Part shown: positions 1 to 35,896 of the stretch, piece by piece
Layout of the letters: every line of letters starts with the position of its first letter
Position numbering within the stretch: the first letter of the stretch is position 1
Virus record (IMG/VR): IMGVR_UViG_3300032254_000019
Span: 1-36,933 of that record
Length of the DNA stretch: 36,933 nt
Source of the DNA: a virus
Taxonomy: Duplodnaviria > Caudoviricetes
Reading direction: 5' to 3' (one strand)
Notes under the pieces: generated by a model
Told to the model about the DNA's origin: nothing
Database searches by the model: none
What the model saw: the letters and a program-made list of their open reading frames with translations, nothing else
Position numbers and translations under genes: made by a program

Positions 1-71
1 TCTCTATCTATATTGGCAACGGCTGGGCGAATCAGCGCCGGATACGTAACCGGCATTATTTTAAGGAGACG

Positions 72-293
72 ATGATGAAAGACTATGAGTATTTGAGAAA
101 TTATGCTGCATCATTGCATGGGCAGCCTAAGCGCGTTGAGCGACTTGAATTGATTGCTGACCGGCTGAAAAAACTAGAATCAGCATATTGCAAGTTGACC
201 AACTGCGAGTATTACCAAGACGGGCCGAATTTAGCCGGTGTGTACTGCCCGTCTGAATTGCTGTATGAATTTGATGATTTGTTTGACGCATAA
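72..293 (+). CDS. Hypothetical protein (cassette-like ORF)
   Basis: AAGGAG RBS upstream; TAA stop lies in core GCATAAC (288-294). Confidence 0.8.
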   Translation: MMKDYEYLRNYAASLHGQPKRVERLELIADRLKKLESAYCKLTNCEYYQDGPNLAGVYCPSELLYEFDDLFDA

Positions 294-416
294 CGATAAT
301 GGTAACTTGCCGCCGAATTGAAACCGATGAACTTAGGGAAACAAAAATGCCAAACGAAACTACAGAAATAGAAAACCGCGCCGAGGTAGGCGGTCGAGTT
401 GACCCGCTTGTTAGCG
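288..416 (-). repeat. attC-like site 1 (129 bp)
   Basis: Minus strand reads CGCTAAC-AAGCG-GGTCAACT...AGTTACC-ATTATC-GTTATGC: canonical R''-5bp-L''...L'-6bp-R' layout with extra C and CGAC bulge. Confidence 0.9.
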
Positions 417-631
417 GTGGCCGGTTGAGTAGTGCTTATAACGCTGCAAATCTTCAGGTTTGTGCTTGCTACGGTGCTATATCGCATATAGACGCAGCAG
501 AAAAAAGGTTGCGCTCTACACAGCGCGCACCTTTATGGCTTCTCAAACATCTTGACGAGGCGCGCAGAAAAATGAATACGACAATTTTGCCTGAATTGAT
601 ACGCAAACGCGATGAGTTATATTACCGCTAA
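347..631 (+). CDS. Hypothetical cassette protein (start inside attC1; ORF track start 299)
   Basis: ATG at 347 after AGGGAA; reads through the right arm of the site; TAA in core CGCTAAC. Confidence 0.75.
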   Translation: MPNETTEIENRAEVGGRVDPLVSGGRLSSAYNAANLQVCACYGAISHIDAAEKRLRSTQRAPLWLLKHLDEARRKMNTTILPELIRKRDELYYR

Positions 632-706
632 CCAAAAGCTAACAGGAGAGGAACGAAATGAGTGAAACGAATGTAGAGACGAGTCCCGTTGAGCGCCTTG
701 TTATGC
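626..706 (-). repeat. attC-like site 2 (81 bp)
   Basis: + strand CGCTAAC..GCTAACAGG....GAGTCCCGTTGAGC-GCCTT-GTTATGC. Confidence 0.85.
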
Positions 707-915
707 GTGATGGGTATTGCTGCGACTGTAACCACAACCCTGCTGAGACGATTGTTGAGGCAGCAAAAAGGCCGGGACACAAATGCAATGGATGCTGGTT
801 CACAGACCGCAAGCCGAACTGGGCACCGAAGGACGGAAAACAATATTACACAGAAGACGGTACGCTGATGAATTCGGACGGTAGCCGAAGTATTTTTGAC
901 GATGTGGACGCCTAA
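658..915 (+). CDS. Hypothetical Cys-rich cassette protein
   Basis: AGGAGAGG RBS and ATG inside attC2; CCDC and CNGC motifs; TAA in core GCCTAAC. Confidence 0.8.
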   Translation: MSETNVETSPVERLVMRDGYCCDCNHNPAETIVEAAKRPGHKCNGCWFTDRKPNWAPKDGKQYYTEDGTLMNSDGSRSIFDDVDA

Positions 916-1011
916 CGCTAGAACTCAGGCGACCAGAACCGCCTGCGATGAACTTTAAATTTAACTATGAGGCCGATGCGGTTCTGGGTCGGCTGGAGTG
1001 ATTTGTTATGC
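910..1011 (-). repeat. attC-like site 3 (102 bp)
   Basis: GCCTAAC-GCTAGA-ACTCAGGCGACCAGAACCGC ... GCGGTTCTGGGTCGGCTGGAGT-GATTT-GTTATGC; long stem with extra bases on the right arm. Confidence 0.9.
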
Positions 1012-1274
1012 GTATCTCAATTAGAAAAAACACATGCGATAGCGCGATTGGCGAGGCGACAGTCAACGCGCCTGGAGCAAATATAACGATTGATTATGAT
1101 CGCGACGATTTGGCACATGAGCTTGTAAATGCGTACAGAGACCTATTTGATAATACCGATGATTGGGTGGCTCACCTAAGTATGTATATTGATTCTAGCG
1201 AAAAGGCACAGCTCAGGCCGATGCTTTTGGACGAGGACGGAAACAGAAGCATCTTTGACGATGTTGACGCATAA
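1008..1274 (+). CDS. Hypothetical cassette protein
   Basis: ATG is within core GTTATGC; GGAG RBS (995-998) is within the L box; TAA in core GCATAAC. Confidence 0.8.
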   Translation: MRISIRKNTCDSAIGEATVNAPGANITIDYDRDDLAHELVNAYRDLFDNTDDWVAHLSMYIDSSEKAQLRPMLLDEDGNRSIFDDVDA

Positions 1275-1393
1275 CGTCACAAATTACCGGCAATGTGCAA
1301 CTGGGAGCTTGCCGAATTGGGTGAATTTTAACTTAACTGCCAACACAAACAAACACTGCGGCACATTGTCCGAGTAGATTTGTTTTGTTGGGC
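1269..1393 (-). repeat. attC-like site 4 (125 bp)
   Basis: GCATAAC..AATTACCGGCAATGTGC ... GCACATTGTCCGAGTAGATT..GTTGGGC. Confidence 0.85.
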
Positions 1394-1412
1394 GGGCTAC
1401 GGAGTGAATGAA

Positions 1413-1628
1413 GTGAGTAACCTACAAAGAGCTAAAAAATGCGTCACGCATCACCATGCCTGCGATTGCAGAGAATACAAATTTAATGAGATGGAGAGTG
1501 CGCTTAAGGTAATAGCAACATGGGCATCGTGCTCAAACATGGATCGGAAGCCACATGCCAAGCAAATGCTGGATATTGAACTGAAAGCAATGGCTGCTTT
1601 GAATGCCTTAAACGGTATTGACGCCTAA
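1413..1628 (+). CDS. Hypothetical cassette protein with Cys/His cluster (ORF track start 1380)
   Basis: GGAG at 1401 then GTG 1413; CVTHHHACDC motif; TAA in core GCCTAAC. Confidence 0.75.
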   Translation: MSNLQRAKKCVTHHHACDCREYKFNEMESALKVIATWASCSNMDRKPHAKQMLDIELKAMAALNALNGIDA

Positions 1629-1682
1629 CCCCGCGATAAAACGCGGAGCGTAGCGGAGTCGGATTTAATTGCATTGTTAGCC
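1623..1682 (-). repeat. attC-like site 5 (60 bp)
   Basis: GCCTAAC...GGAGCGTAGCGGAGTCGGATTTAATT-GCATT-GTTAGCC; length of a classical 59-base element. Confidence 0.85.
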
Positions 1683-1699
1683 GTATTTTGGAGATGATT

Positions 1700-2008
1700 A
1701 TGGATTACTGGGAAGAAACAATTTCAGAAGCATTTGAAGACGCTGGAATTGCTGCGACAAAAGAACAGATACAAACTGTCGCTAGTTGGGTTGAGGGTGC
1801 TCATGACAACTACGGAATGGCTCACGGATACGATGCAATACCAAGCCACGTAAACAGCGAGATCGAGCAGATTAAAGCACGTCATGCTGCTGAGATTGCA
1901 GAACTACAAAAGCAGGTAAATTGCTACAGAGATAGCGTTGCGTTACGTAGAGGCGTGAAGCGGGAAGATGTTTACCTCGATAGCAATGGCTGCGTTATGT
2001 ACGGCTAA
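1700..2008 (+). CDS. Hypothetical cassette protein with coiled-coil segment (ORF track start 1688)
   Basis: GGAG at 1690, ATG 1700; TAA in core GGCTAAC. Confidence 0.85.
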   Translation: MDYWEETISEAFEDAGIAATKEQIQTVASWVEGAHDNYGMAHGYDAIPSHVNSEIEQIKARHAAEIAELQKQVNCYRDSVALRRGVKREDVYLDSNGCVMYG

Positions 2009-2052
2009 CCCCGGAGCTTAATTGCTCCGTCAATTACAGCGCCTTGTTATGG
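2003..2052 (-). repeat. attC-like site 6 (50 bp, very short)
   Basis: GGCTAAC-CCCGGA-GCTTAATTGC-TCC-GTCAATTACAGC-GCCTT-GTTATGG. Confidence 0.8.
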
Positions 2053-2069
2053 CGCGTGGAGATGAGAAA

Positions 2070-2366
2070 ATGAAGTGTGAAATCTGCGATAAACCAATAG
2101 GAGGCGACCACATTTCTCAGGAGACCAAGGTCCGTTTGTGGGACAAGCTCGCAAAACGGCACACCGAATACCACCGTGGCTGCTGGAATGAATACGCTGC
2201 CGGCATAACATCTGAGCCTGAGCGTTTGTGGCGTGAGCGTCTAGAGCTAGCAAAAAGCAAGATGGCGGACTGCCACAAAGACGACAAAAAACACTGGCGC
2301 GCATGTGTTGCCGAAGCGAAACAGAGAATTAAGGAAATTGGAAATGGGCATACAAGTACATATTGA
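2070..2366 (+). CDS. Hypothetical protein, possible Zn-binding (CxxC...HxxC) (ORF track start 2022)
   Basis: GGAG then ATG 2070, MKCEICDKPI...YHRGC; first of two ORFs in one cassette. Confidence 0.8.
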   Translation: MKCEICDKPIGGDHISQETKVRLWDKLAKRHTEYHRGCWNEYAAGITSEPERLWRERLELAKSKMADCHKDDKKHWRACVAEAKQRIKEIGNGHTSTY

Positions 2367-2571
2367 TGACACCTACAACGTAACGCTAAACGATCTGTTG
2401 GGGCTTGTGCCAAACAGCAAAGCGGCTAAACGATATGCCGAAATAATGGATGATTTAGGACGGTTGCAGAAGATCGTTTCTGGCGCCGCAGAATGGGCTG
2501 ACGCGGAGCACAGGAGCAGGATGGACCCTGAGTGGCTAGTAGATGCTCGTAATTACTTGGGCACGGACTGA
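2344..2571 (+). CDS. Hypothetical protein (second ORF of two-gene cassette)
   Basis: ATG 2344 after AAGGA, overlaps the previous ORF; TGA abuts core GCCATAAC. Confidence 0.7.
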   Translation: MGIQVHIDDTYNVTLNDLLGLVPNSKAAKRYAEIMDDLGRLQKIVSGAAEWADAEHRSRMDPEWLVDARNYLGTD

Positions 2572-2572
2572 G

Positions 2573-2663
2573 CCATAACCCATTTAGCACAGGCGACGAA
2601 CGCAGTGAGGAGTCCAGTGGAATGAACGAAGTGAGTGAAACGAGTGTGCCTGAAGTATTTGAT
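2573..2663 (-). repeat. Degenerate attC-like site 7
   Basis: CCATAAC-CCATTT-AGCACAGG..GAGTCC.. and loop GAACGAAGTGAGTGAAACGA nearly identical to site 2, but no right-hand GTT core. Confidence 0.55.
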
Positions 2664-2735
2664 GATGAAAATGCCGCTAGGGCGAAGAAGAATATTGAAC
2701 GATTGTTTCAACACCGCAGCCAGGAGGCAACATAA
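2622..2735 (+). CDS. Putative 37-aa peptide MNEVSETSVPEVFDDENAARAKKNIERLFQHRSQEAT
   Basis: Manual translation; GAGGAG upstream; TAA falls in core ACATAAC like neighbouring ORFs. Confidence 0.5.
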   Translation: MNEVSETSVPEVFDDENAARAKKNIERLFQHRSQEAT

Positions 2736-2854
2736 CCTTTGGGTAACGCGCCGCATTAAATAAACAAACATTGGAGTAACTGAGATGACGAACGAAACTA
2801 CAAAACCAGAAGCAAGCACAGAGTTAGGCGGTCGCGTTGACTCAGCTGTTAGTG
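2730..2854 (-). repeat. attC-like site 8 (125 bp), paralogous to site 1
   Basis: ACATAAC..GGTAACGCGCCGC ... GCGGTCGCGTTGACT-CAGCT-GTTAGTG. Confidence 0.88.
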
Positions 2855-3042
2855 TGCCTGAACTTTTCAGGGTGCGCTGGTGGATTCAGGACACTATGGA
2901 AAGTGGTCATTGGGAAGTGTCTGGCTTGGTTGGCCTAAAAACTGCCCAGCAGTATGTGCGCTGCGGTTATTACGAGCAGGCACAAATTGTACTAGATGAA
3001 GATGGTTGGCCGATATACGAGGGTGATTGGTGGGCACACTAA
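2785..3042 (+). CDS. Hypothetical cassette protein
   Basis: GGAG and ATG inside attC8; TAA in core CACTAAC. Confidence 0.8.
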   Translation: MTNETTKPEASTELGGRVDSAVSVPELFRVRWWIQDTMESGHWEVSGLVGLKTAQQYVRCGYYEQAQIVLDEDGWPIYEGDWWAH

Positions 3043-3085
3043 CACTGGGCTATACACACCTGATAAGGTAGGGAGCGTAAAAACA

Positions 3086-3391
3086 ATGACTTATAGAGCA
3101 AATAAAAAAGCACGAAAACTGTGGTCATTACAAGCAAACGCCGCAAAAGAAAGAAAAAGACTCGCTGAAAAGGATCAGCATACTGACTTTGTAGATATTG
3201 ATCCTTACATAAAAATCACAATAGAACGCAGGCACACAAAAGAAGTCGCAATATTTGAGTGTCTTGAGGGCAATAGAATTGATAACTACAGCATCTATTG
3301 CAACGATGAGCACTTAGGGATTCATGGCATTACGTTTTTAATGAACCGCATCAGAAAGTCATTACCAAGGTTTAGACGGTTTGATAAATAA
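3086..3391 (+). CDS. Hypothetical basic protein (ORF track start 2996)
   Basis: GGGAG at 3071, ATG 3086; AT-rich; converges on the primase gene. Confidence 0.75.
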   Translation: MTYRANKKARKLWSLQANAAKERKRLAEKDQHTDFVDIDPYIKITIERRHTKEVAIFECLEGNRIDNYSIYCNDEHLGIHGITFLMNRIRKSLPRFRRFDK

Positions 3392-3406
3392 GCCGCTATG
3401 AACTAG

Positions 3407-5827
3407 TCACATAGCAGACTGTGGACCTTTAAGGCCTATCCCGATATAGTACATAGCTCCATCTGCCCGGCCTTTATTAAAACCTCTCTCAGACATTTTA
3501 CGGCCAAACAACGTTTGAGTCATAGGCTTCTCATTACGTTCCTTCTTCCACGATGAATATGTGTGATATAGAACTGACCCTGCAACCTTGACACTTGCTG
3601 GATCAATATCCATGTGCTTGGCAACTATGCAGTTATCCCCCATAAACCGCAGTAATTCGTCTGACTCATCCTGGTATGCGCGGGTAGCTGCTATAACAGA
3701 TTCAGGCTCACAAAGACCTGTTTTTTGCCACTCAAGGCACCCTTTAATTGCCCAGTTCAGAATCCCGGCTGACTCACTCTCAAGGGTTTTAATAAGGTCT
3801 TTATCACGTTTCTCTTCCGGGATTGTTACTTCAAACGGAATTAGTCTAAGTCTGCGCCACATTGCGTGATCTGTACCATAAACGGTCGGTTTGTGATTGG
3901 TTGACATCCATGGTTTGAACTTTGGCGCGTATGAGAAGAATTCACCAAATGGAAACCTGCCTTCTATCTTATCTTCACCTGTTGCAACCTTTATAAGCTC
4001 TTCCCGCAGCCTGCCTGATTCATTGGTCTCTGACATAAACAGTGCCCTGGCAGCTCGGAATCCAGCAAACCTGTAATTATCTTCAGCCGATGGTTTCGCA
4101 CCTATAAACGCTGCTGTGGACGTTGCCATACCCATATCGCCTAGCAACATAGCCATTAGCCGCATAAACGTAGATTTACCATTAGCGCCAGTGCCGTGCA
4201 TAATAAAGAATGCCTGCTCACCTGTTTTACCTGTGAGTGTGTACCCAACAGCGCGTTGAAGAAACTTAACTGTTTCAATGTCTCCGTCCATAATTTCTAA
4301 CATAAATTGTTCCCAACGTGGGCATGTAGCAGTGGCGTCAGCAACGACATGCGAGCGGGTAGTAATAAGATCCTCAGGCTCTGAGTTACGGAGCTTGCCG
4401 GTGCGTAAATCAACCACACCGTTTGAGACACCTAGTAGCCAGTCGTCACCATCAAGATCGCCAGTTGAGATTGAGATACCGGCGCACGACTGTGCGGCCT
4501 CGATGCAGCTCTTGGCACCACCGACAGCCTCGAGTCGCCTAACTGTCTTTAGCTGCGCATTAAGGGCTTTCTCATCCTTTCCGCAGCGGTCTCTTACTTC
4601 AAACTCCATACTCGGGACCATGGCCCATACTCTACGAATCATCTCACCTGATGTATCGAATACCCATCCTCGTGCTGGTGCGGCCTCGCCAGGTTTAGCA
4701 GTATTCCCAAACGTCGATTCCCGTGACCCGGATTCCCAAACAAGCCATTTCTGTTGCTCATGTATGAAGCGCATACAATTAGGAAATGAAGCTATTAACC
4801 GTTCAGCGTTACCTTTATCTGAAGATCTGAATTTCCCTTCAGGTATAACAATATCTTCGAAATCAGCCTTACCACTACTAATATCGTCCGATACAGGTAA
4901 AACTGGCTGGACACTAGTAGAGACCTTATTTACATTACGCGCAGCAATAAACTTAGGAATTGCAGGGAATATTTCTCTCTCAAGCGTCGCGTCATCTATT
5001 GGAATAGCGTTATTAGGGCATCGTTCTACATTTACACGTTTGATAGTGGCACGGATCATATCCTCGTCGAGTCCCTTTCCAACAAGATGGCCAACGTACT
5101 GTACTAGCGGTTGAGTGCGGTTGCCGGGTGCAAGTATATCAGGGAGGATAAAAGTGGAGTCCATGTCAAGGGAGATAGGGAGGCTGTGGGATACCTCACT
5201 TGAAGGGAGCATGGACTCCAAACCTGTAGCGACCTGATTACTATCGCCATTTAAAATCTTACCAGATTGTGCGGCTGATACAAGTGTGCGGCACGATATC
5301 TGAGGATGATTACTAATAGAACATTTTACAAGTGCCGGCGAATTGTATTTATGGTTAATAAATCCAGGGACTCTAAGTACCCGGTCAACATTAGTCATTG
5401 ACGGATCACAGCCAAAACGTTTAGCAAGAAGTGCCTGCGAGAGTTTGAACCCAGTTATTGACTCATCATTAACTCGCCATAGGCAGTGCCATCGACCCGG
5501 ACTTGATGTGGTTAGGATATGAGGTCTTGGCATAGCATCGCGGATAGGGCCAAGCGGCGCACCGTCAGTGTCGACGAACAAATAGCGCACATTAGAGATA
5601 TGTGCTTTACCACGGTCAGCCCCTTCATTGACCTGTACGAATATCCCAGCGCCACGTGCATTAAGATCTGATAACGTCTTACTATGCTGACTGAATGACC
5701 CAGTTAATACCCGTGCAAGTGGATCACGACCACCGGGTTTTTTATCGGAAAACGTTTGGAACACATAAAAATCGCTACTCGATATGGCGCTCAAAAATGA
5801 GTGGCTTAAACTGAGGTCGGTCCCCAT
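3407..5827 (-). CDS. Primase-helicase (RepB-like primase N-terminus, D5_N and P4-family SF3 helicase)
   Basis: LFVDTDG and SSPGRWHCLW primase motifs; NGVVDLRTG; Walker A GTGANGKST; TNHKP, WRRLRLIPF. Confidence 0.93.
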   Translation of the reverse strand: MGTDLSLSHSFLSAISSSDFYVFQTFSDKKPGGRDPLARVLTGSFSQHSKTLSDLNARGAGIFVQVNEGADRGKAHISNVRYLFVDTDGAPLGPIRDAMPRPHILTTSSPGRWHCLWRVNDESITGFKLSQALLAKRFGCDPSMTNVDRVLRVPGFINHKYNSPALVKCSISNHPQISCRTLVSAAQSGKILNGDSNQVATGLESMLPSSEVSHSLPISLDMDSTFILPDILAPGNRTQPLVQYVGHLVGKGLDEDMIRATIKRVNVERCPNNAIPIDDATLEREIFPAIPKFIAARNVNKVSTSVQPVLPVSDDISSGKADFEDIVIPEGKFRSSDKGNAERLIASFPNCMRFIHEQQKWLVWESGSRESTFGNTAKPGEAAPARGWVFDTSGEMIRRVWAMVPSMEFEVRDRCGKDEKALNAQLKTVRRLEAVGGAKSCIEAAQSCAGISISTGDLDGDDWLLGVSNGVVDLRTGKLRNSEPEDLITTRSHVVADATATCPRWEQFMLEIMDGDIETVKFLQRAVGYTLTGKTGEQAFFIMHGTGANGKSTFMRLMAMLLGDMGMATSTAAFIGAKPSAEDNYRFAGFRAARALFMSETNESGRLREELIKVATGEDKIEGRFPFGEFFSYAPKFKPWMSTNHKPTVYGTDHAMWRRLRLIPFEVTIPEEKRDKDLIKTLESESAGILNWAIKGCLEWQKTGLCEPESVIAATRAYQDESDELLRFMGDNCIVAKHMDIDPASVKVAGSVLYHTYSSWKKERNEKPMTQTLFGRKMSERGFNKGRADGAMYYIGIGLKGPQSAM

Positions 5828-6206: not shown

Positions 6207-6428
6207 ATGAATAAGGGAACATACTGGAAGAAGATGGCATTTCACAACCAAGGTGAGCCTATATGCGAAACACCTTATTTTGATGATGTGATCCAGTTAC
6301 TTGCAGATGAGCTTGAAACAGGCAGAGATCATAGTGTGCGCGTACTAGAGCTGCTGCGAATTGGTGCGTCAGAGTACATTGAACGCTGTATGAAGTTTGA
6401 AGGCATAGACCAGGACATATCAGAATAA
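6207..6428 (+). CDS. Hypothetical protein (ORF track start 6132)
   Basis: GGGAG RBS, ATG 6207; TAATG overlap with the polymerase gene. Confidence 0.75.
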   Translation: MNKGTYWKKMAFHNQGEPICETPYFDDVIQLLADELETGRDHSVRVLELLRIGASEYIERCMKFEGIDQDISE

Positions 6429-7534
6429 TGATTGGACTTGATCTTGAAACTGCCCCATGCGAAGGGCAGCCTCAGCCTTATGCACTTCAACCGTGGAGAG
6501 CTAGGGAGGGTACGGCGCATATAACGTCGTGTGCGATTGCTAAGTCATCGGGACAGGCTAAGACAACACCAGGCAGGTACAGCGACCTTAAACAGCTACT
6601 GATAGAGCTTGACGGTAAGTATGTAGCAACATGGAATGGATTATTTGACGTTGCGTGGCTACTTGCCTATGGGTTGGATGAGCATGTCAAAAAGATAAAG
6701 TGGGTTGATGCGATGTTGCTATGGAAATGGGTAGAAAATTCACAGTCCAAGGAGCATGCACCTGCGTGGTCGTTGATGGACGGCGCTAAAAGGTGGCTAA
6801 AAGACTGGCCCCATCTGGATAGGTTTAAGGATATGAAGTCAAAGGAAGTAGCCGCCGGGGAAGACGACAAGTATTGGGAGATGAGAGGCAAACTTGATGC
6901 GCTTGTGACTGTCAAGATCGCTGAGATCCTTCAACATAAATTAACTGACCAGCAGCGTAAATCAGTGTTAATCGAAGCGGCGTGCATTATACCGGCAGCA
7001 AAAGCGTGGATAGGCGGGATAAACATTGATACACATAAATGTAAGGCAATAGCGCCAATAATTACTGACGAAATGAGATCTATAGAGGTTAAGTTGGGCG
7101 TATGCGACAGTACATCAGACAAAGACCAGTGGAAGCCATCAACGCTATTATCATCACCTAAGAAGTTAAGCGTATTATTATATACTACTTGGGGTCTGCC
7201 ATGCTCAGTATTTAGTGATAAAACTGGCGCGCCGAGTTCAAATAAAACCGCACTGACATACCTTGCCGATACCGATCCAAGAGTACTCGATATTCTAAGG
7301 TGGCGCGAGCTGAACACTCAGTATACCAAATTTGTCAAAGGGATCATTGCGACATCAGAGTATATCAATGACGATATAGCATACCCGTCACCGAAAATAT
7401 TCTCGACATATACAGGCAGGTTCACGTATGCAAGTAGGAGTGGAAAGAAAGGCGAGAACTACAAAGCTAAGGTAGGTATACCCATCCACCAATTCCCTCG
7501 GAATAAAACCTTGAGAAAGTTAATTGGAAGTTGA
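6428..7534 (+). CDS. Family A DNA polymerase, N-terminal part (3'-5' exonuclease and thumb)
   Basis: ExoI DLET, ExoII WNGLFD, SSPKKL..LLY...GLP, TGAPSS, TYTGRFT, HQFPR. Confidence 0.9.
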   Translation: MIGLDLETAPCEGQPQPYALQPWRAREGTAHITSCAIAKSSGQAKTTPGRYSDLKQLLIELDGKYVATWNGLFDVAWLLAYGLDEHVKKIKWVDAMLLWKWVENSQSKEHAPAWSLMDGAKRWLKDWPHLDRFKDMKSKEVAAGEDDKYWEMRGKLDALVTVKIAEILQHKLTDQQRKSVLIEAACIIPAAKAWIGGINIDTHKCKAIAPIITDEMRSIEVKLGVCDSTSDKDQWKPSTLLSSPKKLSVLLYTTWGLPCSVFSDKTGAPSSNKTALTYLADTDPRVLDILRWRELNTQYTKFVKGIIATSEYINDDIAYPSPKIFSTYTGRFTYASRSGKKGENYKAKVGIPIHQFPRNKTLRKLIGS

Positions 7535-7730
7535 CGAGCGAACCATGACTAAATTAGCAGAAATTGAATGCAGGATCTTACGGAAAACATACTGCGCATA
7601 CCTTATAGACAATGGGAAATTCAAAATGTGGTTATCAAAGTCACACATAATTGACGAGACAAACTACCTTAACGGCGCTGTACTCACGATCCCTATGTGG
7701 TTAGCACTGAATGAGGGACTGGTGAAGTGA
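7524..7730 (+). CDS. Small hypothetical protein between polymerase halves (alternative ATG 7545)
   Basis: AYLIDNG..MWLSKSHI...LTIPMWLA..EGL resembles a recurrent small phage beta-rich protein. Confidence 0.7.
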   Translation: MEVDERTMTKLAEIECRILRKTYCAYLIDNGKFKMWLSKSHIIDETNYLNGAVLTIPMWLALNEGLVK

Positions 7731-7879
7731 ACGTAATGACGGCAATATGCCTTGCAGGGTCGTTTTTGAGCCTGGTAGGCGCACTACAGGCATACAATAC
7801 TGGACTAAACTATTATCCGTGGTTAATAGCATCTATATGGGCGGGTATAGCAGCATTAGGAAGTACCAATGGGAGATAA
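7727..7879 (+). CDS. Putative 50-aa two-helix membrane protein
   Basis: Manual translation MNVMTAICLAGSFLSLVGALQAYNTGLNYYPWLIASIWAGIAALGSTNGR; GTGA overlap with the upstream stop. Confidence 0.6.
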   Translation: MNVMTAICLAGSFLSLVGALQAYNTGLNYYPWLIASIWAGIAALGSTNGR

Positions 7880-8690
7880 GTTACTTGTTGAGTTCGATGC
7901 CGCGGGGCAGGAAATGCGGATCATGGCCGATTATTCACAAGATCCGGCATTACTTAAAATCTTTAATTCTAAATCCCCCTTTGATGATGTCCATTCCTAT
8001 ACTGGATCAAAGATTGCCGGAATGACGTTTGAAAACTTCCTGGAGGCTAAGGCAGCAGGGAATAAAAGAGTAGTTGGAGAGCACGGGCTGAGACACATGG
8101 GGAAATTTTGCAATTTGTCCGGCCTCTATAGAGTAGGTGTCAAGAAGCAAAGAATAAATGCTCGAGTTCAGTATGGCATTGACAAGGATTATATGACGAT
8201 TAGTAGCTGGCAAGACACGTTCCACCGTGCCTATCCAGGTATCAAACGATACTGGGCTGCTGCGATAGCTACCGCTAAAGATCGTGGGTATGCTGAGACT
8301 CGTGCCGGACGCAGATTCTATATTACTGATTGGAATATCCCGGATAGGGCCTGGGGTTGTGAAAGCTCTGCCATTAATTTCCCGATTCAAGGTACAGGTG
8401 CGGATATGAAGGAGCTGGCTATCGCAGTAATATCTAAAAAGTTCCCTAAATTTGAATTCGCATGGGATCTACATGATGGCGAATTTGGATATATCGAATC
8501 GAAACATATCAATTCTAATATGCAGATAATATACGACATTAGAGAGACACTTGACAATCTACCGTACAAAGAAGCATGGGGATGGGAGCCAACTGTGCCC
8601 ATAACATGGGATGCCGCAGTAGGTAAAACGTGGGGTGATATGAAAGAAGTAAACTGGGATGAAAAAGGATCACTTATAACAACATTATAA
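7869..8690 (+). CDS. Family A DNA polymerase, C-terminal catalytic part
   Basis: Motif A LVEFDAAGQEMR, motif B RHMGKFCNLSGLY, AINFPIQGTGAD, motif C DLHDG; AGGA RBS. Confidence 0.92.
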   Translation: MGDKLLVEFDAAGQEMRIMADYSQDPALLKIFNSKSPFDDVHSYTGSKIAGMTFENFLEAKAAGNKRVVGEHGLRHMGKFCNLSGLYRVGVKKQRINARVQYGIDKDYMTISSWQDTFHRAYPGIKRYWAAAIATAKDRGYAETRAGRRFYITDWNIPDRAWGCESSAINFPIQGTGADMKELAIAVISKKFPKFEFAWDLHDGEFGYIESKHINSNMQIIYDIRETLDNLPYKEAWGWEPTVPITWDAAVGKTWGDMKEVNWDEKGSLITTL

Positions 8691-12571: not shown

Positions 12572-13584
12572 GCAACCAAATAATTATCCCAGAAGGCACC
12601 CAATTACCGGCGCATCTTCAGAATAGAGTCACAGACAATTCGAGCCTAGCTGTAGTAGATAGCTTTCTACCACGTGTCGTTGCTAAAGATGGACACTTCA
12701 TAATCCGTAAGGACGGCGAAGATAAACATCTACCTTTAGGCCAGGGACTCGGCGTCGTAATCATGGCAGCCTCACCATTAGGTAAGGCGGTAGCCAAGCA
12801 ATTCTATGCGAGTGCTTACTCCCCGGATAGTGACGCCGAACCGGATTGCAGATCAGCAAACGGCGTAGTGCCAGATCCTGGGTGTCTGAACAAACAGTCA
12901 GATACATGTGCAGCATGCCCGAAAAATGCGTGGGGATCGGGTGTTGATGCCCAAGGTATGCCGACGAAGGGTAAGGCGTGTTCAGATCGAAAAGAGCTGA
13001 TTATAGTCCCGAATACTGTAATCGAAGGCGACATCTATATGCTATCTGTGTCACCAAAAAGTTTGAAGCCATTAAGTATTTATGGCCGTGAGCTGGACAA
13101 GCATAATATTCCTGTTAGTGGTATAACCACAACGATTGGCTTCGACCCAGCCGATCCAAAGGTACTTAAATTTGAATTTGGTGGGTTCCTTGATGCAGCA
13201 CAGGATGCGATAATTCAGAAGCGTATCCAATCAGACGAAGTCCAGTCGCACGTAGTTGGATCTGATACAGTTCAGCCGACAGTTCAAGCAGTGTCTGAGC
13301 CGTCTGTGGTGGCCCAACCTGTACAGACCGAGTCTGATGTACCAGACGACCCCTTTAACGCGCCTCAGAAAGAGCTGCATGAATCAGATGTTGACGCTAA
13401 CGGTGATGAGTGGGACGAACAGATCCACGCGGCTACTAAATCGAAAACAAAATCAGGTCTGTGGACGAAACGTAGGTCGACTCAGCAATCCGAAGCTGTG
13501 CAGGCTGCGGTAACGGAGCCGGATCAAATTAGTGACTCAGATGCCGATGAACTTAATAGTATACTCGGAGAGTGGGGCGCGTAG
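12568..13584 (+). CDS. Putative ssDNA-binding/recombination protein
   Basis: PDCRS.NG..P, CAACPKNAWGS, GKAC; long flexible acidic C-terminus ending in W; position in the replication module. Confidence 0.6.
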   Translation: MSNQIIIPEGTQLPAHLQNRVTDNSSLAVVDSFLPRVVAKDGHFIIRKDGEDKHLPLGQGLGVVIMAASPLGKAVAKQFYASAYSPDSDAEPDCRSANGVVPDPGCLNKQSDTCAACPKNAWGSGVDAQGMPTKGKACSDRKELIIVPNTVIEGDIYMLSVSPKSLKPLSIYGRELDKHNIPVSGITTTIGFDPADPKVLKFEFGGFLDAAQDAIIQKRIQSDEVQSHVVGSDTVQPTVQAVSEPSVVAQPVQTESDVPDDPFNAPQKELHESDVDANGDEWDEQIHAATKSKTKSGLWTKRRSTQQSEAVQAAVTEPDQISDSDADELNSILGEWGA

Positions 13585-31477: not shown

Positions 31478-32845
31478 TTAACCCTCCGAGCCAGTTTTTT
31501 TGATATTAAACACAGGAAGGGGTGCAGGGATTGCATCGTCCTTACCATCCACATTTACAGTTGGACCCCCACGGGCACTGTAATCATCAGTTACCGCGAT
31601 CTTTGACAGTCGCTCTAACATTGTCATCGTCATGTTGTTCAGTTCATCGTCACTGAAATCACACTTTTCATTGGCACTCAAAGATGTCACTAACGAAGCC
31701 TTCTTTTCGGCGTGCATCTTTAGGCCGCTCTGAAGCATATCGCGCATATCGTCCGGCGCTGCGGCGATATATTCATCAGCAGTCGCTGGAGCGTTATGCT
31801 CTACATTAACAACAACGGGTTCAAGCTTTTCAAGCTGCCCCTCATCAAGGCTTTCAAGCCATTCCGAGTCGGCATCGGAAAAGTTCGTTAGTTCGTTTGC
31901 GATTAGTGCTGTAACACGCTCGTTCATACTCATATCAGTCTTCCTCTCTATATCTATATACTCAGTTGTTGGTCTCACCTCGACCATATCTTCACCCAAA
32001 GTAACTGTACCTTTGTCGTCCGTCAGTGAGTAGTCTCTCCTGTACATCGTATCATCAGCGTAATACACGAAGTAATCATCGAATACCGCGACAACATAGG
32101 CCCACTGCTCATCAAGCGCTGAAATAATCGAAGTACGCAAATCCTCATCACTAACTTGGTTATATTTAGCTAAAACCTCTTTCTCACCTAGTGCTTGATT
32201 ATGAGCATCAGCATTAGACTTTACCTTTTCTTCACATCCGGTACCGTCCTTACAGCCTTCGCAGCAGAATTCCTTGTGAGTTCTGAAATTCATTCTAGGT
32301 GCGCCGCATCCATCTTCCCACGAACACGCTCCTTTCTCCCCAGGCTCTAGAATAGCAAGATGGTCAGGGATAATGTTTGACTGAACTCCGAAATACTGTG
32401 CGTTATTATGGAATCCTTCGGTAGGTGTTACGTCGCAGAAGTACCCCGTGCTAACTTCAATCTCTTCACCACTTTCAAATCGTGAAAGCAAACTATCGGG
32501 TGCAACCTGTGTATCTACCCACATCTCCATTTTCAGCTTGGTCTCATCCTGGAATGTGTTAAAGATAAATCCTACAGTTTCAGTCTCCATTACATCAGGA
32601 GACCCTGCTGATACATACGCTCCATTACGCTGCGGATGCCCCATTGTTACAGGACGGGCATTCCACGAAGGTACAACCTTTGAAAACTCAGATGCCGCCA
32701 CAAATTCTGGCGTTTCACTCGTTGCACCTTGCAGCACACCTTCAACAAGTGCTACTACTGGTACGACAAGGTGCTCATTTCCTAGAAATGACTCTCGTCT
32801 GACTGCATCAGGTGCAGATTTAAGTGTGATGAACCTATTGTTCAT
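31478..32845 (-). CDS. Prohead protease/scaffold (DUF2213-like)
   Basis: WNARPVTMGHP, EVSTGY, PDHLAIL...GACS..DGCG; acidic helical C-terminus. Confidence 0.85.
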   Translation of the reverse strand: MNNRFITLKSAPDAVRRESFLGNEHLVVPVVALVEGVLQGATSETPEFVAASEFSKVVPSWNARPVTMGHPQRNGAYVSAGSPDVMETETVGFIFNTFQDETKLKMEMWVDTQVAPDSLLSRFESGEEIEVSTGYFCDVTPTEGFHNNAQYFGVQSNIIPDHLAILEPGEKGACSWEDGCGAPRMNFRTHKEFCCEGCKDGTGCEEKVKSNADAHNQALGEKEVLAKYNQVSDEDLRTSIISALDEQWAYVVAVFDDYFVYYADDTMYRRDYSLTDDKGTVTLGEDMVEVRPTTEYIDIERKTDMSMNERVTALIANELTNFSDADSEWLESLDEGQLEKLEPVVVNVEHNAPATADEYIAAAPDDMRDMLQSGLKMHAEKKASLVTSLSANEKCDFSDDELNNMTMTMLERLSKIAVTDDYSARGGPTVNVDGKDDAIPAPLPVFNIKKTGSEG

Positions 32846-34150: not shown

Positions 34151-35896
34151 TCACGCAGCGCTCCCCCATAGAATGCTTCTAGATTTATTACGTCCAAGCA
34201 TAAGCTCTCTTAGTGCATACACAGCAGCATCTAACCTATTCGGCGATGGTCCTGACCCGTCATATATACACATCTCGTCCTCAAGTTTAGAAAACGTACC
34301 AACATGTTTAATCCGTTCTTGTTCATATAGCGCTGCAATAGGTTCAGCACGTAGTATCTTGCCCTGGCTCGCATGTATCAACTTAACCGGCACATTCGGG
34401 TCGATAGTGTGGATTGTATGCTCGACCATCTCACCGCCTTGATTCTTCTCTGCGACAATTATATCCGCATCAAAGTTATGGAATGTATCCACTGCTATCT
34501 GTGCCCACTCACGTGGACTCCCTTGAACTGAGTAATCACCTAGTAAATACCCCACTTTGTCACTGTCAATCCCGGCGACGCAAATACCGGCTTCATCACC
34601 TGTACTTGACCCTGAGGGGTCGACACCGACTGCTTTACGGATGATATTATCCGGCGCTGTAGATATACGCACTTTACTGAGGATATCATAGTTCCACAAC
34701 GCACCCTCAACGTCGTCAAGAATCTCAGCATTAAGCTCTTGCCGTCCTATACGTGTCCCCTCATATTGGGAAATGATCTGCTCTCTAAAAGTCTTCGATA
34801 GATTAGCAAAATTATCATACGTGGACCCTCGGATAATATATACATCATCACGCTGGATAAGATCTTTAAGTAGCTTTATCGGTTTAGGTGTAGTCGTCAC
34901 GGCGCATTGAGACCGCCCTAATCTGAGTCCAAGCATTAAGTTCGACCAGACATCTTCAATCTTGTTCCTGCCATACGACGCCATTTCGTCCACCCATGCC
35001 GTATCATGTGACGGGCCACGTAATTGCTCTGGATCTTCCGCCGTAAAAATCGTCGCCCTCGCACCATTAGCCCACTCAACACGTCGCTTTGACGGCTCGT
35101 ATACTGGACGGTCTCGTTTTGGATGGACTGCAAGTATTCCTGACTCGCCCTCAACCATAACACCACGTGCGTCGGCGGCTGATTGTGCGACGAGGGCAAT
35201 ATGTCCGGCTCCTCTCTGTACCTGCTCTCTTACCCACTCTGCCGCTGTGCGTGTATTGTGCGTTGGGATGCAGTTATTACCCGCAAGGTATAATCTAGAT
35301 GGACTGTCAACTGTGATGCACCGTACTGGCACTGAATCTACAGCTATAATCTCTTCAATAGTGACCCTACGTGCCTGTAGCCCGTCGACTTCAGGGCATA
35401 AAATTGAGCATTTATGGCTGTGTTTTTCAATAGCATGTTTTATTCTATGCGTCTCAAGTGTGAAATAACGATCTGGAAAAGCCTCAAGCTCTATGCGCCA
35501 TAAATGTTCTGAGTCTGCTACGATTCGCTCACCATCTGAGAACCTCACCTCGAAACAGTCACGGTCATATAGTACGTCGTGTGCTTTCTCCACCATACAA
35601 TACTCACCGTGCTCATCTGCTACGATATCGCCTGTCTCCAGCTCGCCCATGGTGCTCCACCCATCAGCTGTTAGAATAGGTGTGTCCAGCGCCAGCGCTT
35701 TCCCGAACCCTCGGCCTGCAAGTAGAAGGTAAATAGAGTGATTCGTATCTGGCAATATTTGGTTATCCCGCGCCCAGCCCCTCCAATCGTAAAGGATTGC
35801 CTCTGCTTCAGCCTCGGACATTTTATTTACAGCGTCAAAAAAAGTATCCCGCCCTACTTTCTCGATTAAATCCCGATACTTAACTTGCCCATTCAT
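34151..35896 (-). CDS. terL: Terminase large subunit containing an intein
   Basis: Walker A AGRGFGK/T, LRGP, Walker B WVDE, TTTPK, nuclease VGVDPS, SPNRLDA. Confidence 0.95.
   Translation of the reverse strand: MNGQVKYRDLIEKVGRDTFFDAVNKMSEAEAEAILYDWRGWARDNQILPDTNHSIYLLLAGRGFGKALALDTPILTADGWSTMGELETGDIVADEHGEYCMVEKAHDVLYDRDCFEVRFSDGERIVADSEHLWRIELEAFPDRYFTLETHRIKHAIEKHSHKCSILCPEVDGLQARRVTIEEIIAVDSVPVRCITVDSPSRLYLAGNNCIPTHNTRTAAEWVREQVQRGAGHIALVAQSAADARGVMVEGESGILAVHPKRDRPVYEPSKRRVEWANGARATIFTAEDPEQLRGPSHDTAWVDEMASYGRNKIEDVWSNLMLGLRLGRSQCAVTTTPKPIKLLKDLIQRDDVYIIRGSTYDNFANLSKTFREQIISQYEGTRIGRQELNAEILDDVEGALWNYDILSKVRISTAPDNIIRKAVGVDPSGSSTGDEAGICVAGIDSDKVGYLLGDYSVQGSPREWAQIAVDTFHNFDADIIVAEKNQGGEMVEHTIHTIDPNVPVKLIHASQGKILRAEPIAALYEQERIKHVGTFSKLEDEMCIYDGSGPSPNRLDAAVYALRELMLGRNKSRSILWGSAA
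35255..35698 (-). mobile_element. Mini-intein (148 aa, Ala-start, class 3 signature) in the TerL Walker A motif
   Basis: GFGK|ALALDTPILTADGW...ADSEHLW...PVRCITVD...IPTHN|TRT. Confidence 0.93.

Follow-up and report, generated by a model that had tools for sequence, protein, structure and literature searches.

Probable integron-type platform of reversed polarity, with a candidate attI-like terminal site, at the left end of a phage genome record

The left end of the IMG/VR record IMGVR_UViG_3300032254_000019 raises the question of how a phage comes to carry integron recombination sites (attC) whose neighbouring genes all read against them, as an original prediction from this DNA had proposed. 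The window analysed here is the entire record (36,933 nt, linear, 61% complete), and PHROGs and Pfam scans of 50 open reading frames (ORFs) identified the gene set of a long-tailed phage, with primase, a split DNA polymerase A, exonucleases, helicase, and lysis, tail, head and terminase genes. The attC row occupies the left end of the window, where small plus-strand ORFs converge on the primase gene. We consider it likely that this region is a phage platform of the integron type with reversed polarity, built of units in which the attC precedes its gene. The units are probably excised and inserted between TAA and C of a conserved box (TAA/C) by an integron integrase (IntI) supplied from outside, and new units probably enter at an attI-like site at 3037-3071.

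For each of the eight sites (Table 1), the two strands were scored in turn as the top strand of an attC, with the boxes R'' (RYYYAAC) and R' (GTTRRRY) and the L'' and L' boxes at distances of 5 and 5-6 nt. The minus strand scored better at six sites, and the strands tied at the other two (1623-1682 and 2573-2664). Watson-Crick pairing of the L boxes favoured the minus strand at all eight (5-7 of 7 pairs vs 3-4 of 7), and the box set was complete on this strand at seven, the R'' box of 2573-2664 being without its AAC. The attC asymmetry thus reads canonically on the minus strand, as had been proposed. The boxes quoted in the prediction for the sites at 288-416 and 910-1011 are present as written, and the GTC that it had placed on the right arm of every site was found at seven of them and was missing from 2573-2664.

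In an attC bottom strand, the extrahelical bases are G16 and T23, and the strand is purine-rich (Nivina 2016, PMC5027507). On the plus strand, numbered from its 3' end, G16 and T23 were exact at four of the eight sites and shifted or substituted at the rest, and the mirror pattern from the 5' end occurred at none. The purine share of the plus strand exceeded one half at seven sites. A detector identified six sites in 1-3200, compared with a mean of 0.17 and a maximum of 2 in 200 dinucleotide shuffles; this second version was written after the sites had been seen, and the first, which mis-paired the arms, gave only 2 sites vs 0.2. In the control phage TJE1, all three sites were called with the top strand on plus, as are the genes. 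In the piece of a Vibrio chromosomal integron that Va_p16 contains, 11 of 15 site calls had the top strand on plus and 12 of 15 annotated genes lie on plus, suggesting that the scorer errs on weak calls. Eight sites on one strand in 2.6 kb agree with the spacing that defines a cluster of attC sites lacking integron-integrase (CALIN), namely two or more attC that share a strand and lie within less than 4 kb of each other (Cury 2016, PMC4889954). Isolated attC-like scores within genes at 32671-32727 and 13121-13261 have no neighbouring sites and are probably due to chance.

The genes themselves were correctly predicted to lie on the plus strand. All 11 plus-strand ORFs in 72-3391 had positive codon log-odds (2.6 to 18.9), and the best overlapping minus-strand ORFs were all negative. 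Most plus-strand ORFs have a ribosome binding site (RBS), and the four plus-strand proteins that were searched all have homologs. Minus-strand ORFs of 26-88 aa do overlap most of the plus-strand ORFs, so that these might be ordinary cassettes with their true genes on the minus strand. This explanation is hardly credible in view of the codon scores, the conservation of the plus-strand proteins, and the plus-strand stop codons, which coincide with the TAA of a site box in 7/8 cases. Neither of the observations that would have spoken for the opposite arrangement was made: not one of the eight sites scored better on the plus strand, and no overlapping minus-strand ORF appeared coding. The site features, taken together with the natural junctions described below, point to the coding (plus) strand as the recombinogenic strand.

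Genes and sites are interlocked. At seven of the eight sites, the stop codon of the previous gene is the TAA of the left-hand box (R'). At five sites, the start of the next gene lies inside the attC (four times in the loop, once in the R'' box), and the right-hand box (R'') is read in frame in all five. Since the crossover would fall directly behind the previous stop codon, the attC loop can contain the RBS, the ATG and the initial codons of the gene behind it and still travel along with that gene. The arrangement is not simply one gene per attC, as the cassette after attC 6 carries two ORFs. Among 164 non-redundant strong viral sites, equally oriented, a plus-strand ORF stops in the left box of 87 and within 30 nt of it in 35, and a minus-strand ORF stops in the right box of 21. 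An ATG was found inside 31 of these sites, with the GTT in frame 0 in 22, in frame 2 in 9 and in frame 1 in none (frame 1 would often give a stop).

What moves as a unit was read from junctions in related DNA. The loci L004, L005 and L006 have in common a homolog of ORF 1700-2008 up to GTATAAC, after which three different attC follow, and L006 contains one attC-plus-gene unit more than L005, bounded by TAAC. Contigs (not reads) of four public runs, including X3, X4 and X1, which may be the source sample, were aligned to window positions 1-3600. Among the 13 loose ends listed of 18, 8 fell within 4 nt of TAA/C, a zone that makes up 2% of positions; those at TAA/C continue into other attC arms or derive from other gene ends. 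A minority contig of X1 and one X3 contig diverge into other attC arms after 297 and 295, respectively. In X3 and X4 contigs, attC 3 and its downstream gene were found as a single piece (913-1277 and 913-1270). We conclude that the unit is an attC followed by a gene, because natural junctions fall at TAA/C and because attC 3 and this gene occur as one piece.

An all-against-all comparison of 120 viral loci yielded 39 shared stretches with 41 ends near sites, of which 22 lay at the left box, 3 at the right box, 8 inside the site and 8 elsewhere; these ends were counted by hand (one left-box end, at a terminal site, by eye), the pairs have loci in common and so are dependent on one another, and selecting loci by the attC pattern in itself makes them alike in R''-L''. 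Whole units from left box to left box were found four times among these loci, and from right box to right box not once. Two proposals of the original prediction are borne out by these data. The breaks in L004-L006, the 913-1277 piece and the left-box-to-left-box units agree with a cassette consisting of an attC and then a gene, and the preference for the left box, together with the stop codons inside it, agrees with a crossover at TAA/C behind the previous stop codon.

There is also a rarer second boundary. An attC of L008 matches attC 8 at 95% up to GTTA, where a different gene body begins, and the body of ORF 2785-3042 is alike in L059 only from 2848. Shared pieces consisting of an attC only (L008/window, L073/L091) or of a gene only (L059/window) suggest that attC and cargo have also been re-paired at the right-hand box. 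Such pieces, together with ends inside sites and chimeric sites, are likewise what would be expected if the attC-derived sites now served as short homology and translation modules, and if single-strand annealing proteins of the phage shuffled the genes by microhomology, without any integrase. We regard this explanation as improbable. Up to 13 nt are shared at some left-box junctions, RBS or start codons lie within 31 of the 164 viral sites, and two of the cassette genes have homologs that lack an attC (L001-L003, L019). However, only about 5 nt are shared at several junctions (e.g., window/L296), the left box is favoured 22 to 3 though the right box is just as short, sequences that are unrelated nonetheless retain L-box pairing and extrahelical bases, and at a non-hairpin site, described below, many different upstream genes are joined at a single fixed base.

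Two further features of the related loci were observed. At about 3925-3985 of L005 and L006, the gene is 99% identical and the attC before it is chimeric, alike in its right half and different in its left half, with the join near the GTCC bulge and poor L-box pairing. In L006, one cassette occurs twice in the array (2066-2334 and 3307-3568), each copy with its upstream attC.

The array could in principle be a frozen relic from an integron-bearing ancestor that no longer rearranges, in keeping with one degenerate site, weak folds, and the failure to find an integrase or joints. This is very improbable, because units of the window recur in other runs at 99% identity or more with different neighbours. 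The minority contig of X1 (depth 19 vs 58) also has another attC after the first gene, although it differs at 4 letters and may be another phage.

The prediction had placed the array at 288..2854, which proved too short. After ORF 2785-3042, the array ends in a site with a left box and no partner arm (3037-3071), followed by the ORF for a 101-aa protein (3086-3391). A protein search identified 20 members of this family, and their alignment led to 19 viral loci. Every one of the 19 has a TAAC 46 nt (in one case 56 nt) ahead of the ATG of the ORF, and in the 16 distinct terminal-site sequences the TAACA, TA, AA and GT columns are invariant. No convincing attC partner for the terminal site was found in any of the 19 loci. 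Inverted attC lie upstream in 15, and the remaining four have at most 552 nt upstream. Identical or near-identical sites follow different upstream genes in L341/L345/L347, in L350/L352 and in window/L296, and in X3 and X4 contigs other gene ends stand before 3040. A further case of the terminal site (L098) was found with another query.

Position, strand, crossover, box spacing and the changing upstream genes all fit attI, and we therefore regard 3037-3071 as a candidate attI. The attI box geometry that we assumed for this comparison was partly general background and partly taken from a published Shewanella attI. In Pseudoalteromonas (L233), a motif at a distance of 151 nt from intI was at first compared with the terminal site, and this likeness was dropped; another site of L233, at 235 nt, is closer to the published Shewanella attI. 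Unlike in a complete integron, the place beside the attI-like site is taken by the 101-aa ORF and not by intI, and the genes do not run on the top strand away from it.

The terminal module recurs in the 97%-complete record G009 (locus L296), where it is 95% identical from TAAC on and stands behind an inverted array of its own; otherwise, this phage and the window are alike only in tail-fibre pieces. The L296 unit adjoining the terminal site is a canonical cassette, with a gene on the top strand that ends before its own attC, and is antisense to the row. This gene has 68 homologs, and the three named by organism are from bacteria (Desulfobulbia, Deltaproteobacteria and Geotalea). G009 also contains a second inverted array, with three sites, at 3804-4472 (L333).

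The 101-aa ORF had no Pfam, PHROGs or NCBIfam family, no recombinase match and no Atlas match. A Foldseek search of viral structures with its model (pLDDT 79.5, pTM 0.45) gave nothing at E 0.001, and the best Z score among 48,161 PDB chains was 4.2. Excisionase-like or integrase-like ORFs often stand behind it (L340, L341, L345, L348, L355 and L357; by eye, with only L105/L357 scanned), and several carriers therefore look temperate.

Where could the recombinase come from? The complete 43-kb phage G044 (L104) provides one example. It encodes three tyrosine recombinases, one of which is a true IntI (TIGR02249, 371.8 vs a cut-off of 265 bits) on the strand of the genes, at the end of an inverted array of five attC with a TAAC half-site. 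Its layout is that of the window, with IntI where the window has the 101-aa ORF. The attC pattern also matches bacterial arrays beside IntI. We infer that the junctions were made by IntI, supplied by the host or by a co-infecting phage that bears it. It is unlikely that exchange in the same architecture is instead due to a recombinase of the phage itself, encoded in the unsequenced part of its genome, or to a tyrosine recombinase other than IntI (Xer-type). The record is only 61% complete, G044 has an IntI of its own, and directly behind the terminal module L105 carries ordinary phage tyrosine recombinases and L348 and L355 carry integrase-like ORFs. Nevertheless, no PF00589 match was found in G009, despite its 97% completeness and closely related module, and PF00589 was absent from 8 of the 9 array-bearing records that are at least 90% complete. 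The classic 5+8 / 7+5-6 site geometry with G16 and T23, in a pattern that also hits bacterial arrays beside IntI, is a further argument for IntI.

The survey of attC arrays by gene direction that the prediction called for revealed a sharp split between viral and bacterial DNA. One top-strand attC pattern gave 111 matches at 108 loci in viral contigs and at least 136 matches at at least 127 loci in bacterial genomes (9 of 64 parts). Matches without partner (5 viral, 8 bacterial), duplicates (10 and 11) and weak sites (35 and 37) were dropped, leaving 61 and 80. With the codon model, 46 of the viral sites were inverted, 4 canonical, 2 mixed and 9 unclear, compared with 2, 54, 3 and 21 of the bacterial sites. 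The Fisher p value for this split, 9e-23, is overstated because kin are included and are not independent. Gene direction by ORF length (33 inverted, 5 canonical and 23 unclear viral sites; 7, 44 and 29 bacterial sites) was replaced, because a shadow ORF had miscalled L104. The claim of a phage-adapted cassette class holds in so far as inversion is typical of phages; it is not exclusive to them, given the canonical array of TJE1, the bacterial-type cassette in L296 and the re-pairing at the right box.

Phage attC clusters as such have been published (Qi 2023, PMC9892861). According to this work, IntI1 recombines attC1 and attC2 of phage PH101, the bottom strand better than the top strand. The available part of the text treats phage CALINs and their activity and does not discuss gene direction relative to attC, which the figures or the Dryad annotation file could show. 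We examined 9 of the 21 phages (TJE1, PH101, Va_p16, P12002L, Shewanella 3/49, jenny 12G5, H188, ctTUS972 and Saratov-12). Four sites were identified in PH101, where most genes lie on the bottom strand, although one plus-strand ORF may lie between two sites; the bottom strands recombined by IntI1 are the minus strand of its record and thus the strand of the annotated flanking genes. The three sites of ctTUS972 are inverted, Va_p16 is canonical, and TJE1 (L011) has three sites in canonical orientation; at 244-1519 of L011, two genes extend into the attC and have their stop codons there. With the present detector, no convincing array was found in P12002L, Shewanella 3/49, jenny 12G5, H188 or Saratov-12. 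A literature search, for which most subscription journals were outside the scope, identified no paper on inverted phage cassettes or on a phage attI module.

For a platform of this kind, the following cycle can be proposed. IntI from the host or a helper phage would excise attC-plus-gene units at TAA/C, and excised units would insert at the terminal site 3037-3071. The row is probably a single early operon, transcribed from left to right toward the entry site. Read from the left, it would need no cassette promoter (Pc), and the newest cassette would therefore be last in the row, opposite to the order in Pc-driven integrons. The purine-rich bottom strand would supply the RBS and leader codons, and a rarer top-strand exchange at R'' would join an attC to a different gene body with the frame preserved. 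A bacterial cassette that enters would come to lie antisense and, without a promoter of its own, would not be expressed. Integron cassettes are often anti-phage according to two preprints (10.1101/2024.07.02.601686 and 10.1101/2024.07.02.601719), and it may be speculated that reversed polarity silences host cassettes.

A number of findings weigh against this proposal. On the side of the enzyme, the 36.9-kb, 61%-complete record contains no PF00589 tyrosine recombinase, also not at the attI end; IntI was above the cut-off in none of the 19 platform-bearing records, and PF00589 matched in only 6 of 47 array-bearing records. Neither an excision joint nor a circle was found in the contigs of the four runs. 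The eight shared-stretch ends inside attC, and the chimeric-looking attC that precede the gene common to L005 and L006, are not explained by bottom-strand recombination by IntI. The terminal site is not always last: attC-like sites occur about 740 nt beyond the module in L296, and 3 of the 19 loci have an attC-like site within 3 kb downstream of it. The terminal-site consensus pattern had no match in the five bacterial genomes tried, and no host attI counterpart was found in them. The sites themselves are imperfect. Minimum-energy DNA folds give the L-box stem on the plus strand for only four of them (288, 626, 910 and 2730), with the R box unpaired in all four, and alternative folds for the others; by the same calculation the plus strand is the more stable one at only five of eight, and 2573-2664 is degenerate, having lost the AAC of R''.

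A bolder version of the proposal is tentative and rather doubtful. In this version, the phage system would be a mirror image of the bacterial integron, with a phage-only pool of attC-then-gene cassettes and a phage attI module whose 101-aa protein replaces intI and recruits or induces the host integrase. Polarity would keep the two pools apart, leaving host cassettes, including defence genes, silent, and in-frame exchange at R'' would make new cassettes from an attC leader and a gene body.

Table 1. Features of the attC row and its terminal module (window coordinates; site scores are given as minus vs plus strand).
Feature	Position	Strand	Remarks
First ORF of the row, 73 aa	72..293	+	Terminates at the TAA of site 1; no attC seen in the 71 nt between it and the contig start
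attC 1	288..416	-	Score 12 vs 6; loop contains RBS and ATG 347 of the next gene, which reads in frame through L'' and R''
Cassette ORF, 94 aa	347..631	+	Coding score positive; no Pfam or PHROGs family
attC 2	626..706	-	Score 10 vs 7; ATG 658 within loop
Cassette ORF, 85 aa	658..915	+	68% homolog in L019
attC 3	910..1011	-	Score 11 vs 8; GGAG of the L'' box and ATG 1008 of the R'' box serve the next gene
Cassette ORF, 88 aa	1008..1274	+	One unit with attC 3 in X3 and X4 contigs
attC 4	1269..1393	-	Score 8 vs 6; three loose ends at 1275-1277 run into other attC arms
Cassette ORF, 71 aa	1413..1628	+	Weakest coding score (2.6)
attC 5	1623..1682	-	Score tied; L-box pairs 5 vs 4 in favour of minus; look-alikes in X3 and X4 with other flanks on both sides
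Cassette ORF, 102 aa, phrog_12330 (phage family, no assigned function)	1700..2008	+	Homologs in the inverted arrays L004-L006 and, without attC, in L001-L003
attC 6, 50 nt	2003..2052	-	Score 11 vs 7
Two overlapping ORFs in one cassette (2070-2366, 2344-2571)	2070..2571	+	ORF list, coding score
attC 7, degenerate (R'' without AAC)	2573..2664	-	ATG 2622 inside
Cassette ORF, 37 aa	2622..2735	+	Coding score
attC 8	2730..2854	-	Score 12 vs 6; ATG 2785 inside; 95% over 120 nt to the L008 attC, which heads another gene body
Cassette ORF, 85 aa	2785..3042	+	Similarity to the L059 homolog is confined to the stretch between the right box (2848) and the next TAAC (3043)
attI-like terminal site	3037..3071	-	TAAC box and, after 5 nt, a second box containing TATA, plus a conserved third motif; lacks an attC partner arm
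Conserved 101-aa ORF, no known family	3086..3391	+	Occupies the place of intI in integrons

The cargo of the row consists of small genes. Searching with ORF 658-915 gave 41 loci, most of them matched by way of a short motif at the C terminus, and a site call of any kind was obtained at 4 of the 40 non-self loci (L019-L058). Two neighbouring cassette genes share a 42-nt ending (876-917 and 1235-1276; 83%) that encodes the C-terminal SIFDDVD; this motif terminates about 40 metagenome proteins, mostly without attC. Inverted cassettes in L008, L098, L114 and L296 contain ORFs that, from their sequence motifs only, we presume to resemble DNA methyltransferases.

The contig starts only 287 nt to the left of attC 1. 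The backbone of the phage has few visible kin: the primase query found none in viral contigs, region 1-3400 found none in GenBank phages, and the terminase query found relatives only at less than 60% identity. Rfam gave no match in 1-3400. DNA polymerase A is encoded by two ORFs (6428-7534 and 7869-8690) with small ORFs between them, so that 6428-8690 may be a split gene or contain an inserted element. The large terminase subunit (34151-35896) has an extra N-terminal piece, of which residues 57-138 match separately. A 16-nt repeat lies at the extreme end of the contig (36852-36933) and may be an end effect of assembly.

Compared with known systems, the row resembles the phage CALINs of Qi 2023 (PMC9892861) in its attC cluster, with no intI found in the 61%-complete record, its small genes without known function and the methyltransferase-like genes of its relatives, and sites of that kind are recombined by IntI1 via the bottom strand. 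It departs from that account, in which the arrays are read as bacterial-like cassettes, as re-examination found PH101 mostly inverted, ctTUS972 inverted and TJE1 canonical; an attI-like terminal module in a virulent-phage CALIN is not described in the parts of that text considered here. With bacterial integrons (Cury 2016, PMC4889954; Nivina 2016, PMC5027507), the row shares the attC geometry, the extrahelical bases, the common direction of the sites, a fixed non-hairpin end site at the position of attI and units bounded at the R' crossover. Unlike in bacterial integrons, the phage genes lie on the bottom strand and point at the entry site, the cassette is an attC and then a gene, the RBS or start is often inside the attC, and an unrelated 101-aa ORF stands in the place of intI. 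The "opposite orientation" of Nivina 2016 (PMC5027507) is a top-strand accident that turns the whole cassette including its attC, whereas in the phage the attC are co-oriented and only the genes are reversed. Finally, delta-attI cassettes are units that can recombine although an attI-derived site, and not an attC, bounds them (Gonzales Machuca 2026, PMC12901181). This could describe the 3039-3391 module, common at 95% to otherwise unrelated phages; however, the delta-attI cassettes described there confer resistance, belong to class 1 and 2 integrons and have the canonical orientation, and the phage site is last in most loci.

Integron cassettes are usually taken to be bacterial and to consist of a gene and then its attC, whereas the polarity in viral DNA is nearly fully flipped among the sites found with one pattern. 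Surveys that assign a gene to the following attC will mis-assign such inverted cassettes. The pieces in which attC and gene body appear re-paired in frame at a defined box are direct substrates for the question of how cassettes are created, and exchange at R'' would be a visible route of cassette creation if the mirror-image version is true. G044 is a ready source of a phage-coded integrase. The conserved docking site, in phages that mostly have no integrase, suggests that many phages likely use the IntI of their hosts to reshuffle accessory genes, which would explain part of phage mosaicism at base-pair resolution.

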